A stretch of 64,000 bases of DNA from Terriglobia bacterium (GTDB taxonomy: Bacteria > Acidobacteriota > Terriglobia > 20CM-2-55-15). Location of the stretch: assembly GCA_965198225.1 (NCBI GenBank), contig CBDAOY010000008.1, positions 32,001-96,000 of the forward strand, in the 5' to 3' direction. The notes beneath the pieces are model-generated. The model searched no databases and was not told where the DNA came from. It saw only the letters and a list, made by a program, of their open reading frames with translations. Positions 1 through 8,425 of this stretch are shown in pieces (within the stretch, counting starts at the first letter, position 1; each line of letters starts with the position of its first letter). The position numbers and the translations under genes were made by a program.

Positions 1-231
1 GGTCATGAACTTCTGATCGGCGAATAGATGACCCAGTATCCAGACCCAGCGATGGATCCCGCTCAAATCGCCATAGGCGGTCGGATTGAAATAAGCGGCA
101 TAGATCATCGAGAAGGACTGAATGTTCATGATCAGGATCCCGAGCAGGGCAAAGCCCCTCATGGCATCCAGGGAAGGGATCCTTTTCGATTCCGGTACGG
201 GCCCTCGAGGCCCTTGTCTTCGTGACATCAT
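1..231 (-). CDS. DUF418/YeiB-family membrane protein, N-terminal part (continues off the window start)
   Basis: Manual minus-strand translation from ATG 231/228: MSRRQGPRGPVPESKRIPSLDAMRGFALLGILIMNIQSFSMIYAAYFNPTAYGDLSG...FADQKFMT, typical DUF418 N-terminus; absent from the ORF track because it is open-ended. Confidence 0.8.
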   Translation of the reverse strand, partial: MMSRRQGPRGPVPESKRIPSLDAMRGFALLGILIMNIQSFSMIYAAYFNPTAYGDLSGIHRWVWILGHLFADQKFMT

Positions 232-4149: not shown

Positions 4150-4593
4150 TCATGAGTCTTGTCGCTCCAGAAAGGTTTTCAGGCTTTCGCGGAGAAAATA
4201 GTCCCACCCCGCCTGGCCGCTTTCGCGGCTGAAATCTGGATTGTCCTGCGGAAAGGTCTCAATTCCCTTGTGAGAAAACTTCAATTTCGTACCGCTGGGC
4301 GTTTCCGACAGTTCCCATGTGACAGACGAGTTTCCGGCGTAACCTCCGTATCGCCAGTTGTAAGCAATTCTCCTTCCCGGAACCACGTCGGTCACTTTCC
4401 ACTGGTGTGGGTAGTCCCGGTCTTCGACCCGTACATTGAACTGCGTTTCGAAACCTACTTCAGGTTCGAAGTCAGTGATCGTCTCGAAGAACCACTGACG
4501 CATTTGATCCTTGTCGGTAATGGCCTTCCAAACCACAGCGATGGGAGCGTTGAATGTGTGTTCCACGACGATCGGGTCTGCATTTATGTCCAT
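4150..4593 (-). CDS. SRPBCC/AHSA1-like domain protein (cassette gene)
   Basis: FNAPIAVVWKAITD..MRQWFF..F.PEVG..GTKLKFSHKG..GWDYFL; directly follows an attC R' box. Confidence 0.9.
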   Translation of the reverse strand: MDINADPIVVEHTFNAPIAVVWKAITDKDQMRQWFFETITDFEPEVGFETQFNVRVEDRDYPHQWKVTDVVPGRRIAYNWRYGGYAGNSSVTWELSETPSGTKLKFSHKGIETFPQDNPDFSRESGQAGWDYFLRESLKTFLERQDS

Positions 4594-4808
4594 GTGGTTC
4601 GTCCTGAAAGAATTGTCAACTGCAATCTAACGTCGTTGCCGTTAAGCTGCGGGCGCGAAACAAGGCGGCGCAAGCGAAGCTTGCGACCGCTAAGACCAGC
4701 TATCCGCCAGCTTCAACGGCTTGATACTCATGAAGGCCCCCAAAGCTGCCCGCCAGGCGGGCAGGCTGGAAAGGTAACCAAACCGATTCCAAGAAGGGGG
4801 CTTTCTGA

Positions 4809-5855
4809 ATGCGATTCTATACCAACCAACATGAGTACTACTGCGGGATCGACCTGCATGCACGGACGATGTGGATTTGCATCCTCGACTCGACCGGAGA
4901 AGTCTTGGTCGACAAGAACGTCAGTGCCGGACCCGAGGAGTTTCTGAGAGTGATCGAACCCTATCGATCCGATGTGGCCGTTGGCGTGGAATGCATTTTC
5001 ACTTGGTATTGGCTGGCGGACCTGTGCGAGCGGGAAGAGATCCGGTTCGTGCTGGGTCACGCCCTGTACATGAAAGCGATTCACGGTGGGAAAGCCAAGA
5101 ACGACCGGATCGATGCCTACAAGATCGCTGTGCTACTGCGCGGCGGCATGTTGCCCCAGGCCTACGTGTATCCGGAACCGATGCGCGCCACGCGGGATCT
5201 GCTCCGTCGCCGGCTGTATCTGGTCCGTATCCGCGGTGAGCTGCTGACTCACATCCAGAACACGAATCACCAGTACAATCTCGGCCCGATTCCATCGAAA
5301 CTCCAATACCCATCCAATCGCGACGGATTCGTCGAACGATTCACCGATCCGAGCGTCCGGAAGAGCATGGACGCGGATCTGGAACTGATCGGTCACCTGG
5401 AACGCGTGATCCATGCGATTGAGGTCTATGTCCTCAAGCAAGCCCGCCAGCACGATCCCGGAGCCGTTCATCTGTTGCGGTCCATCCCGGGTATCGGCAA
5501 GATCCTGGCGCTGACGATTCTCTATGAGATTCAGAACATCGACCGATTCGAACGCGTTCAGGATTTCGTCTCCTACTCCCGGCTAGTGAAGTGTGCCAAG
5601 GAGTCGGCCGGCAAGAGAATCAGCTCCAGTTCCGGCAAGAAGATCGGTAACGTCCATTTGAAGTGGGCGTTCTCTGAAGCTGCCGTTCTGTTCCTGCGGC
5701 AGAATCCCGATGGCCAGAAATTCTTGGCTCGGCTCAGCCGCAAGCACGGCAAACCGAAAGCATTGAGCATTCTCGCTCACAAGATCGGCCGCATCACCTA
5801 TCACCTGATGCGGAGGAGGACGAACTTCGACATGCGAAAGTTTCTTGCGGCTTGA
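4809..5855 (+). CDS. IS110-family transposase (DEDD RuvC-like plus Tnp20 domain)
   Basis: YCGIDLH, VGVEC, KNDRIDA, LRSIPGIG, KESAGK, GNVHLKWAFSEAA; intact 348 aa. Confidence 0.95.
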   Translation: MRFYTNQHEYYCGIDLHARTMWICILDSTGEVLVDKNVSAGPEEFLRVIEPYRSDVAVGVECIFTWYWLADLCEREEIRFVLGHALYMKAIHGGKAKNDRIDAYKIAVLLRGGMLPQAYVYPEPMRATRDLLRRRLYLVRIRGELLTHIQNTNHQYNLGPIPSKLQYPSNRDGFVERFTDPSVRKSMDADLELIGHLERVIHAIEVYVLKQARQHDPGAVHLLRSIPGIGKILALTILYEIQNIDRFERVQDFVSYSRLVKCAKESAGKRISSSSGKKIGNVHLKWAFSEAAVLFLRQNPDGQKFLARLSRKHGKPKALSILAHKIGRITYHLMRRRTNFDMRKFLAA

Positions 5856-6240
5856 CGGAAGGGAGCGGGAGAACCCTTTGCCTAACTGGCGTCGCTACGG
5901 TCTCATCCTCCATCGAGAATCATCATGCGTGCGGCACCGACCGCGATCACCGATTCTCATGGACCTTAGACCAGACAGCCATCTCGCTTGATTGGTTCCC
6001 GCTCCCGTTCCGACCCGACTGGTGCTCTGCCCCTCACCCGAGCCTGGAGCTAACTGGCGGCACACGCCGACACTTGAGTAGGACGGTACGAGGGTACTGA
6101 TGAATTTCTAGGTCGCGGTTCGATCCTGAACCGCAGTGCTGAGTCTTGACAGCGCTTGAACCTCAATAGGTGTTTGGTGCAGCGCATCTCGGCTGCACCG
6201 GCAATCGAATCCAAGTCGGAGCACGTCTCTCAACTTCGAA
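5856..6240 (+). ncRNA. putative bridge/seek RNA of the IS110 element
   Basis: Stem GGGAGCGGGAGAACC (5861-5875) / GGTTCCCGCTCCC (5994-6006) encloses target matches; a second loop carries donor-junction matches; boundaries approximate. Confidence 0.7.
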
Positions 6241-6316
6241 TTGGCTCACTGTCGTGAGCCATGAGGATTGGTGTCGCTCTTGACTCTACGGGGCCTTATA
6301 GGTGTTAGACAGCTCA

Positions 6317-6688
6317 TTAAGTGACGTGCGGCAGCGGTTCCAACTCTTCTAGGGCCGCCTTGGCTGATCGCATGGCATGCCAGAGATCCCAGTCTTGCTG
6401 TAATCCGAGCCAAAAGTCGGCACTCATCCCTGTGACGCGAGCCAACCGCAGCGCTGTGTCCGGGGTGACTGATCTCTTGCCTCGAATGATCTCATTCAGA
6501 CGGGGAAACGATACGCCCAGACGAATGGCAAAGGCCGACTGCGACACACCGAGCGGCTTTAGAAACTCCTCAAGGAGCATTTCGCCCGGATGCGTCGGAG
6601 GTTCATGGGTGGGCAGCGGGCGTGCCACCAGCGGCTTTTTCTTTGATCGGCGTTTAATGGTAGTCGGTGACTTCGACTTTGTCGGCAT
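6317..6688 (-). CDS. higA: HigA-family antitoxin (HTH)
   Basis: PTHPGEMLLEEFLKPLG.SQ...RLNEIIRGKRSVTPDTALRL...FWLGLQ. Confidence 0.92.
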   Translation of the reverse strand: MPTKSKSPTTIKRRSKKKPLVARPLPTHEPPTHPGEMLLEEFLKPLGVSQSAFAIRLGVSFPRLNEIIRGKRSVTPDTALRLARVTGMSADFWLGLQQDWDLWHAMRSAKAALEELEPLPHVT

Positions 6689-6947
6689 AGCCGTTCTCCC
6701 AAGAAAAACACACCCGGTACTGTTCATTGATCCGAATGCTATATTGGCCTGCTCTGTCGCCCACCAGTCGTTCCAAACGGTTGCCCGGCGGCACCGCCAA
6801 CTCGTGAAGATCTCGTACGCGGTTGAGTTGGGTCAGCTTTCGACGGGCTACGGGCCACAGCTCAATCAGACAGGTTCGCCGAGCTCGCCGGCTTTTGACA
6901 CCGTTGAAGATGTCCGTGGTGGCCTGATCGGCGAACGTCCGTATCAC
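6654..6947 (-). CDS. higB: HigB-family (RelE-like) toxin
   Basis: MIRTFAD..T.DIFNG..VPPGNRLERL.GDRAGQYSIRINEQYRVCF.W..VEVTDYH. Confidence 0.92.
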   Translation of the reverse strand: MIRTFADQATTDIFNGVKSRRARRTCLIELWPVARRKLTQLNRVRDLHELAVPPGNRLERLVGDRAGQYSIRINEQYRVCFSWENGYADKVEVTDYH

Positions 6948-6998: not shown

Positions 6999-7051
6999 GT
7001 CTAACGGTTTGTGGCTCTGTGGCCGCCGTCTGGTGCAGCCACTTGTTATAA
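6999..7051 (-). other. attC site, internally shortened
   Basis: Minus: TTATAAC-AAGTG-GCTGCACC...GAGC-CACAAACC-GTTAGAC; its R' extension GTTAGACAGC is the exact complement of GCTGTCTAAC at the end of the same cassette (6304-6313). Confidence 0.8.
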
Positions 7052-7063
7052 CCGCTGTTCAGG

Positions 7064-7369
7064 TTAGCTGGCCTGCACGCACTTGATACGTCCGAGTTCT
7101 GCCGCCTCCGCTGCCTGCGCGTGATAGAGATCCCAACGGAGTTGGAGGTTCATCCACAAATCGGCGGTAGTCCCAAAGAACTTCGCCAGTCGAAGGGCCG
7201 TGCTTGGGGTGATCCCACGTCGACCGTTCACCAGTTCATTAATGCGTTGATACGGAACACGGATGCCATCAGCCAACTGGCGCTGGCTGAGGCCCATCGG
7301 ATTCAGGAATTCTTCTAAGAGCATCTCGCCAGGGTGAGTAGGCTGACGATGCGTTGGGATTCGGACCAT
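7064..7369 (-). CDS. higA: second HigA-family antitoxin
   Basis: PTHPGEMLLEEFLNPMGLSQ..YQRINELVNGRRGITPSTALRLAKFFG..WMNLQ. Confidence 0.92.
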   Translation of the reverse strand: MVRIPTHRQPTHPGEMLLEEFLNPMGLSQRQLADGIRVPYQRINELVNGRRGITPSTALRLAKFFGTTADLWMNLQLRWDLYHAQAAEAAELGRIKCVQAS

Positions 7370-7399
7370 TGAAGCCTCCGATTCAGTTGCGACCCTTGC

Positions 7400-7693
7400 T
7401 CAGTGGTAGTCGACAATCTCCACATTCTCCGGACCAAGCTCCGTCCACACGAAGCAGACGCGATACTGATCGTTCACGCGCATGCTGGGCTGCCCAGCCC
7501 GATCCTTCTTCAGGGCTTCCAGTTGGTTGCCAGGCGGTGCCCGCAGGTCTCGTAGCGTGCTGGCCGAATCGAGCAGCTCCAGCTTACGCCTCGCGGCCTT
7601 CCGAACGGTTGCCGGGCAGACCTGACGGGCCCGCTTAGTTTCCGATCCATTGAAAATATCTTCCGTGCCACCGTCGCGAAACGAATGAATCAC
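7400..7693 (-). CDS. higB: second HigB-family toxin
   Basis: MIHSFRD..TEDIFNG..LRAPPGNQLEALKKDRAGQ.SMRVNDQYRVCF.W..VEIVDYH. Confidence 0.9.
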   Translation of the reverse strand: MIHSFRDGGTEDIFNGSETKRARQVCPATVRKAARRKLELLDSASTLRDLRAPPGNQLEALKKDRAGQPSMRVNDQYRVCFVWTELGPENVEIVDYH

Positions 7694-7878
7694 ATTACCA
7701 CGATAGCACGGATGCCATGCTACTCGAAGGGCGTGTTACCGTTGTTCGATGTTCGTCGGTATAACGAATAGGGTTTTATCCGCGGTGCGGGCACGCGAAG
7801 TTTCGAAAAACGGCGAACGGACACACGGATCCAACAGCGGGACGGAGAGGATCTCTGGTTTGAAACCGGCAAACGGAA

Positions 7879-8292
7879 TCATGACGAATCCCAGGTTTGT
7901 GGCGGGAGGATTCGGACAGAAACGAGCGTTCCGATGCCGCAGGACGGGCACGGGCGGGGTTCGGCAATCCACTGGAGGAGCGGTTCTGGACGCGGTTTGC
8001 GTGGTGCCTGTGCTCGAGGCAGAAGCTGGCGGCAGCGGGCGAGGTTGCGAGCTTTGTGGCGGTTGGCCATGAAGCCGAAGTGGCGGATGCGCATCAGACC
8101 ACGTGGGAGCACGTGCAGGAGAAAGCGTCGGATGAACTCGTCGGCGTCCAGGGTCATCGTTTTGAGTCAATCGCCACTTTTGCGGTCGCGATAGAGGAAC
8201 GAGACTCCATCGGGTTCGACGGTTCGGATGCGGTGGTTGGAGATCGCGACTCTGTGGGTGTAGCGAGCCAGGTAGTCCAGGACCGTGTCGCT
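7879..8292 (-). pseudogene. IS91-family (Y2 HUH) transposase, C-terminal remnant
   Basis: YLARYTHRVAISNHRI..VSF.YRD, in-frame TGA at 8167-8169, then MTLDADEFIRRFLLHVLP.G.MRIRHFGFMANR and CPSC; 5' part missing. Confidence 0.88.
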
Positions 8293-8425
8293 TCGTAGTG
8301 ACCCAAAACACGCAATTCCGCCACTAGCGATACTTCGGAAAACATCCCGGCACAAGCGGGGGGCTACGTCATCACCCCCAGACTCCCGATGCTTCGGGAC
8401 GGGTTGGTCAGTGAGGAAGCCGCCG

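Follow-up and report, generated by a model that had tools for sequence, protein, structure and literature searches.

An IS110-superfamily insertion sequence with a probable guide RNA for the R'' box of attC sites in a Terriglobia bacterium

Among the insertion sequences (IS) of the IS110 superfamily, those that settle in integron attC sites are represented by the IS1111-attC group (ISPst6, ISPa21, ISKpn4, ISPa25). Siddiquee et al. (PMC11187229) report that ISKpn4 and ISPst6 make seekRNAs which co-purify with the transposase and match the attC target, with the same matches predicted for ISPa25, while Durrant et al. (PMC11208160) predict bridge RNAs encoded in the right end of IS1111 elements, the donor-binding bases often lying in a multi-loop. 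The principle of RNA-guided targeting has thus already been published. Retroelements of quite another kind, the group IIC-attC introns, invade the attC 5' end in antisense orientation (PMC3001079). Here we describe an element found in 64,000 nucleotides of contig CBDAOY010000008.1 (positions 32,001 to 96,000; assembly GCA_965198225.1) of a Terriglobia bacterium; this whole stretch is called the window, and positions are counted from its first letter. In our view this is an intact IS of the IS110 superfamily with an IS1111-type layout which is probably (at about 0.8) guided by a bridge/seek RNA to the R'' box of attC on a TG core.

The IS extends over 4724-6302 (1579 bp) and has TG on either side (4722-4723 and 6303-6304). 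The left junction reads ..CAACGGCT-TG/ATACTCA, where the slash marks the point of insertion and the tail of the flank is GGCT-TG; the right junction reads ..TTATAGG-TG/TTAGAC. A short core at both junctions without a longer target duplication is characteristic of the IS110 superfamily. The non-coding region measures 85 nt on the 5' side of the transposase gene (tnp) versus 447 nt (5856-6302) on the 3' side, and perfect 8-bp inverted repeats, AAGGCCCC pairing with GGGGCCTT, occupy subterminal positions. Subterminal inverted repeats 7-17 bp in length and the longer non-coding region 3' of tnp are the marks of the IS1111-type layout.

The transposase, intact at 348 aa, carries the Pfam domains DEDD_Tnp_IS110 (PF01548, E 5e-16) and Transposase_20 (PF02371, E 2e-18) and scores 194.4 bits, with a cut-off of 140, against the NCBIfam model NF033542 'IS110 family RNA-guided transposase'. 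Residues D15, E61, D99, D102 and S266 align with D11, E60, D102, D105 and S241, the catalytic residues of IS621 (PMC11208158). In 15 aligned sequences the acidic tetrad is invariant and S266 is at least 90% conserved, the residue after the catalytic serine being alanine in this family versus a conserved glycine in IS621. Both domains, the NF033542 score and the DEDD tetrad with its serine place the protein in the IS110 superfamily.

Scripted removal of 4724-6304 restores a palindrome of 105 nt (4625..6310), for which the minimum free energy is -49.9 kcal/mol and the box ends on the + strand are ATCTAAC...GTTAGAC. Since the flanking small genes are all on the - strand, the site reads, in cassette direction, GTCTAAC (R'', RYYYAAC)...GTTAGAT (R', GTTRRRY). 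It is an imperfect palindrome with R''/R' boxes and paired L arms, downstream of a cassette open reading frame (ORF), and thus has the make-up of an attC. The insertion point, GTCTAA/CA, lies inside the R'' box and the element is antisense to the cassettes. An earlier note on this locus, made from the sequence alone, had proposed an IS110 element with TG flanks and a TG core in the inverse-core box of an attC that becomes whole when the element is taken out, and all of this agrees with what we find.

A word-indexed protein search gave at least 8000 candidates passing E 1e-20. Stretches of genomes and metagenomes were preselected by peptide patterns and then confirmed by tblastn, which yielded 445 relatives from 476 pattern-matched stretches of species genomes and at least 579 from at least 597 such stretches of metagenome contigs. 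The best 80 from each source were retrieved for comparison; these are 60-75% identical and come from Acidobacteriota, Binatia, Gemmatimonadota, Nitrospirota, Planctomycetota, Deltaproteobacteria and other hosts. On plasmids, relatives at 49-63% occur in Ca. Manganitrophus, Alteromonas, Catenovulum, Vibrio campbellii, Pseudoalteromonas and Salinivibrio, and the small genes flanking the element were oppositely oriented in three of the four annotated plasmid loci examined first, the fourth (L014) being ambiguous. For its ends to be accepted, a locus had to show G at -1, begin the element with the ATNCT type of left end, close it with ..AT..GTG preceded by T[TG]GAC, and match at 7/8 or better in the subterminal repeat. 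Both ends were found in 81 of 165 loci, and the 80 non-identical ones form the set used in the covariation tests. The left end ATACTCAT is shared by 40 of these 80.

The 3' non-coding region contains a structured loop, which we call loop I. In a single-sequence fold about 5856-5872 pairs with 5996-6012 (z -3.2). Comparison of 48 relatives revealed compensatory changes in 14 of the 15 pairs of its outer stem, with 90.3% of cells paired versus 68.5% in shuffles and a covariation score of 0.637 versus 0.224; none of 500 shuffles scored as high, and slid controls gave 0.11-0.15. The stem is therefore supported without reliance on any idea of what the loop reads. The stem that the earlier note had drawn at 5861-5875/5994-6006 was recovered as 5858-5871/5996-6010 plus 5874-5875/5994-5995. 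Its many G-U pairs on the + strand fit a transcript of the tnp strand.

The 3' side of loop I follows the left flank of the insertion site from relative to relative. Positions 5981-5988 are identical to flank positions -10..-3 in 302 of 640 cells, compared with 224.0 ± 10.1 after permutation (z 7.7; 0/10000), and the excess is concentrated at -3 to -7. By mutual information (MI) the top partners are -6 for 5985, -5 for 5986, -4 for 5987 (best alone) and -3 for 5988 (tied with -6, MI 0.27). The 5' side carries a segment whose family consensus, GYCTAAC, is the sequence of the attC R'' box itself. This segment is nearly invariant (GTCTAAC in 34 relatives, GCCTAAC in 30), yet covariation can be detected: 5876-5883 against the complement of right-flank positions +3..+10 gives z 2.8 (29/10000 permutations), and z 4.0 (0/10000) when G-T/U-G wobble is allowed. 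The position of 5883 is G in five guides, and TTC targets occur in 11 of the 80 relatives; read by eye from the tables, all five G guides stand beside TTC targets, and other rare guide variants, for example those of L070, L065 and L035, likewise match their own targets. In 66 of 79 relatives the 7-nt guide and its own target differ, with wobble allowed, by no more than one mismatch. The covariation of the two strands of loop I with the insertion flanks, for which the earlier note had proposed a check among homologues, is thus found for both target guides. Their order, with the top-strand match 5' of the bottom-strand match, is that of the IS1111-type layout.

A third segment, ATAGG followed by TG, matches the right end plus core of the element. 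The right end, ..ATA(N)GTG, has one variable base, and base 6169 agrees with it in 73 of 79 relatives where 34.7 would be expected; this pair has the highest mutual information of all column pairs (1.02). In addition, the two bases after the left-target guide, AT (5991-5992), are the first two bases of the left end, while the two after the left-donor guide, TT (6173-6174), are the first two bases of the right target. Both may be handshake guides resembling those of IS621. All four motifs of the earlier note were located where it had put them, namely TGCCTAAC at 5879-5886 (7/8 to the reverse complement of G+TTAGACA), GCTTG at 5986-5990, TGAGTA at 6075-6080 and ATAGGTG at 6166-6172. Their chance of arising singly in 20000 shuffles of 5856-6262 is 0.11, 0.36, 0.056 and 0.015, respectively, and that of all four together 0.0001. 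In one sequence the single motifs are weak evidence; the real support comes from the comparison of the 80 relatives, and it extends to three of the four segments.

The same data bear on the possibility that the protein alone finds its target, for instance by the structure of attC, and that the matching segments are features of the DNA such as a right end duplicated within the element or what is left of a captured attC. Some properties of the region would suit this: ATAGGTG with the TTGAAC upstream of it resembles a second right end, the near invariance of GYCTAAC could indicate a protein-binding site, and the motif xTAAC-TGG recurs in the second loop described below. A DNA-level cause, however, gives no reason for the register-exact match of 5984-5988 to left flanks that are highly variable, nor does it account for rare guide variants that accompany matching targets or for a stem whose pairing, G-U pairs among them, is preserved by compensatory changes. 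Also against it is the fact that each 3'-type guide is followed by two bases equal to the partner DNA (AT and TT), in the manner of the handshake guides reported for IS621 (PMC11208158). We regard targeting by protein alone as quite improbable.

Targeting by a bridge/seek RNA would then proceed as follows. A bridge/seek RNA would arise by transcription of the non-coding region, together with or after tnp, and its first internal loop would read double-stranded target DNA on either side of the TG core: right of the core the loop's 5' strand (GCCTAAC) would pair with the top DNA strand (G+TTAGRC), and left of the core its 3' strand (..GCT-TG) would pair with the bottom strand. Since the right target is the R'', or inverse-core, box of attC, the guide itself has the sequence of R''. 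The downstream segment ATAGG-TG is proposed to read the right end of the excised circle in a like manner, after which the DEDD/Ser recombinase would exchange strands beside TG. By this route the lineage would insert at GYCTAA/CA in the attC 5' end, antisense to the cassettes, parting R'' from the rest of the site. Production and binding of the RNA, the cleavage positions, a promoter at the circle junction and the recognition of the donor left end are predictions made from the DNA. For the promoter, TTGACT at 6280-6285 is a candidate -35 box; the spacer from it to GATACT across the circle junction is 18 nt in 69 of the 80 relatives, 17 nt in 10 and 19 nt in one, the frequency of TTGAC itself being uninformative because TTGAC was required for accepting a right end.

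The recognition of the other donor end did not emerge as had been proposed. The earlier note had read TGAGTA as the right-donor guide in a second loop with the same geometry as the first, and neither part of this proposal was upheld. The comparison of 6073-6081 with the complement of left-end bases 1..9 gave z 0.5 (1.4 with wobble; n=80), and the central base, 6078, is not constant (G34/A29/T8/C8), although the C facing it in the left end is invariant. A small excess between 6079 and left-end base 3 (56 vs 47.3) is largely due to one clade, and around 6075 is the only place at which an exact 6-mer complementary to TG and the left end was met with repeatedly (at least 10 of 49 relatives). The left-donor segment ATAGGTG lies about 85 nt downstream of this second loop (loop II), in another region. 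Loop II is nevertheless built like loop I (GAGCC..xTAAC-TGG ... TTGAxTAGGAC), with a closing stem of five pairs, three of which show compensatory changes. Its columns had no covarying partner among the 80 flank and element-end positions against which they were compared; the far R box of attC is a conceivable partner outside this set.

Several observations weigh against the guide-RNA interpretation or limit its reach. With the right-donor guide unsupported and loop II without a partner, only half of donor recognition is accounted for. No match to Rfam was obtained over 4300-6700 at E up to 1, and a scan of 4600-6420 for consensus promoters and terminators, carried out on the linear element, returned 0 sites of each. 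The right-target guide of the present copy agrees with its own target at 7/8, the exception being a C-A mismatch at 5881, and contiguous agreement of the left-target guide extends to 5 bases only, core included. Among the features of the ends, the right-hand GTG, the left-hand G at -1, TTGAC and a repeat of at least 7/8 were dictated by the search patterns, which only 81 of 165 loci passed, while the shared ancestry of the relatives means that the permutation values overstate independence. The two contigs from public RNA libraries that match the element (see below) are possibly carried-over DNA, and as no contig spans tnp or loop I they are uninformative either way. Finally, when the target sites were tested for an inverted-repeat partner arm, one was found for 11 of 42 sites at p<=0.01 and for 13 at p<=0.05; the test penalises bulges and therefore understates attC sites. 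With only 13 of 42 sites having a significant partner arm, it is the flank consensus that points to attC as the target of the whole family.

Several features of the flanks owe nothing to the search patterns: T at -2 is present in 78 of 80 relatives and TT at +1,+2 in 77 of 79. The right flanks read TTGGGC (11), TTAGGC (9), TTCGGC (8), TTATGC (6) and others; 35 of 79 agree with strict TTRRRY and 64 of 79 with a looser pattern. The left-flank consensus is ..GTCGGCTGCAGCGGCTTG (48 sites), and the two consensuses together look like the R''-L'' arm of attC sites. A far-end box was matched by the strict pattern at 20 of 49 sites.

The mechanism may be as described and the present copy nonetheless an inactive resident, a state that we consider rather unlikely but by no means negligible. 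In favour of it, the genome has only a single full copy besides a remnant of 477 nt, and the guide of the full copy mismatches its present target at one base; on the other hand, the ORF and both ends are intact, and fifteen public runs from several studies hold at least half of the element's sampled words. Furthermore, a 255-nt contig in a public RNA-library run is identical to 6133-6308 and then diverges, from which it follows that the same right end also lies elsewhere, beside TG/TTAGGC. That second target is a perfect match to the guide GCCTAAC. Another run from that study contains a contig with the exact sequence of 6066-6222. The remnant in the genome (L002 1501-1977; contig C6:276853-277329) corresponds to 5826-6302 with one difference, at 5877. 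Its left side adjoins an IS256-type transposase gene with its end, a HicA/HicB pair is adjacent, and on its right side TG and a repeat of the last 7 bases are followed by sequence unlike attC. Decay was also seen among the closest plasmid relatives (L014, L016, L017), where the transposase frame has 5 stop codons in Ca. Manganitrophus and 1 in Pseudoalteromonas; the Salinivibrio plasmid copy matches over 72% of the query only, in two pieces, and that of Catenovulum (L015 4067-4110) has a tandem duplication of the last 22 bases of the right end before its TTAGGT flank.

The earlier note had linked the element to the known IS1111-attC subgroup. The two have much in common, namely antisense insertion in the 5' part of attC (PMC3001079), a DEDD/Ser transposase close to 347 aa in length (ISPa21 347 aa, our element 348 aa), subterminal repeats, a 3' non-coding region, and a top-strand match 5' of the bottom-strand match in the guide, as described for the seekRNAs (PMC11187229) and as seen by eye in ISPa21. 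For protein comparison with the IS1111 elements we used the sequences of ISPa21 and IS4321 in pairwise and multiple alignment and took the other members from their published descriptions; the ISPa21 copy was that of integron In416 on plasmid pME-1a (accessions via PMC7232449). Our transposase has 21% identity to that of ISPa21 over 215 aa (E 3e-4) and 26% to that of IS4321 over 122 aa only (E 2e-6; 20% in the multiple alignment), whereas ISPa21 and IS4321 are 30% identical over their full length (E 1e-47). The C-terminal motif is RLVKCAKESAG here and G(M/L)xPxxxS(S/T)G in ISPa21 and IS4321. A GL-P----S(t)G motif is what PMC11187229 gives as the hallmark of IS1111 transposases, and the present protein has neither this motif nor, judged by IS4321 and ISPa21, full-length relatedness to the IS1111 family proper.

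The point of insertion differs as well. ISPa21 is flanked by ..GGCTTGAA and TTGTTAGC.. and shows TGAA at each junction; for ISKpn4, ISPst6 and ISPa25 a review table, which is a secondary source (PMC13604230), gives ..TTGAA/CG..TTGTTAG. Taken together, the ISPa21 junctions and this table place the crossover of the IS1111-attC group between R'' and L'', whereas in the present lineage it lies inside R'' (..TTG/TTAGRC; GYCTAA/CA). There is no TG core in that group. The non-coding region of ISPa21 contains, by eye, GATAACAATC and GTTTGAAC, which match its right and its left target, an order shared with the present element; they are 24 nt apart round a small hairpin, compared with about 100 nt round a large inner domain in our element. 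With so remote a protein and a different insertion point in attC, it is very improbable indeed that this element is a plain member of the described IS1111-attC group, and its placement there was not sustained. By sequence it is rather a separate, very widespread lineage, which appears to cut attC at another position than the published group does. A search of the literature, with ISfinder outside its scope, found no paper on a second attC-targeting lineage of IS110. The attC of the smr cassette that holds ISPa21 (L188 15440-15520, 16820-16890; pME-1a) also has ..GAATTG/TTAGCG, a motif of the type used by the present lineage, only a few bases away from where ISPa21 is joined. In principle one attC could serve both lineages.

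With IS621 the element shares the DEDD and Ser active site and the 2-nt length of the core, to which may be added a predicted internal loop that would read left target and right target on opposite strands, and the candidate 2-nt handshake extensions; the transposase sequence matches 8wt6 at E 7e-10 over the C-terminal domain. It differs in that the RNA of IS621 is encoded in the left end, upstream of the gene, with the order of guides reversed and CT as the core, and in that the donor-reading segments here are not within one simple loop. IS4321 and IS5075, which belong to the IS1111 family proper, share the layout and the site-specific insertion into a repeated recombination-related sequence. 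They were found in at least 5000 plasmid records, and among the 1501 plasmid records matched by the present transposase at E up to 10 the ten commonest genera do not include Klebsiella and Escherichia. The likeness to the group IIC-attC introns is confined to antisense insertion at the attC 5' end, as these are retroelements with a ribozyme and a reverse transcriptase and an unrelated mechanism.

Table 1. Features of the element and of its insertion site, in window coordinates.
Feature	Position	Strand	Description and basis
Larger part of the split attC-like site	4625-4723	-	L'', loop, L', R' = GTTAGAT; 4722-4723 = TG core copy
Left end	4724-4808	+	Terminal ATACTCAT; subterminal repeat AAGGCCCC at 4733-4740
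Transposase gene	4809-5855	+	348 aa, intact; PF01548 + PF02371; catalytic D15, E61, D99, D102, S266
Loop I outer stem, 5' half	5858-5871 plus CC 5874-5875	+	Fold and compensatory changes
Putative right-target guide TGCCTAAC	5879-5886	+	Complementary to core G + TTAGRC(A); 7-nt form GCCTAAC at 5880-5886
Putative left-target guide	5984-5988, core TG 5989-5990, AT 5991-5992	+	Covariation with left flank
Loop I outer stem, 3' half	5996-6010 plus GG 5994-5995	+	Compensatory changes
Loop II	6031-6094	+	Closing stem 6031-6035/6090-6094; contains TGAGTA 6075-6080
Putative left-donor guide ATAGG + core TG	6166-6172, then TT 6173-6174	+	Matches right end plus core
Right end	6280-6304	+	TTGACT 6280-6285; GGGGCCTT 6290-6297; ATAGG 6298-6302; TG core copy 6303-6304
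Rest of attC R'' box	6305-6310	-	TTAGAC on + = GTCTAA on -; with core C, GTCTAAC

The neighbours of the element are an AHSA1-like ORF (4150-4593) and a HigA/HigB pair (6317-6947), all on the - strand, so that in cassette order the attC comes after the HigB/HigA pair and before the AHSA1-like ORF. Among 40 genomes of relatives searched for an empty site, one has the AHSA1-like gene (83% identity), where it stands without attC, and no empty site was present. The sole integron-type integrase match of the genome is on another contig (C6:488798-489706, L004; TIGR02249, 446.5 bits) and contains an in-frame TGA. A tyrosine recombinase of 313 aa is present in many copies with identical scores on contigs C6, C7 and C9 of the same genome. 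A strict scan for attC returned 0 sites in the window, which was scanned as is, with the interrupted site unrestored; a loose scan returned 13 + 15 sites compared with 13-22 in five shuffles and is uninformative. By eye, a second attC-like palindrome was found at about 7000-7052, between the HigA/HigB-like pairs 6317-6947 and 7064-7693 (both on the - strand); it ends ..CACTTG/TTATAAC, an unused site of the TTG/TT type. Overlapping ORF fragments lie near the cassettes at 7736-8311, and the fragment 7879-8157 (- strand) resembles what we take to be the C-terminus of an IS91-family transposase. This stretch is probably a decayed element adjoining the cassettes.

The cassette arrays of integrons in environmental bacteria are a major reservoir of genes. 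By landing in R'' the element separates this box from the rest of attC and should therefore freeze the boundaries of cassettes, and the large size of the lineage means that it could be a common but overlooked modifier of integrons beyond the clinical ISPa21/ISKpn4 type. The lineage is a natural set of predicted guide RNAs encoded 3' of the transposase gene, with a mapped target loop, and it appears that two distant lineages read overlapping parts of one site, attC. Only tentatively, as something we hold possible though short of an even chance, do we suggest the wider view that a lineage just remotely related to IS1111 proper, abundant in environmental bacteria of many phyla, has become specialised on attC R'' independently, and that its loop II may read something so far undescribed for such RNAs.

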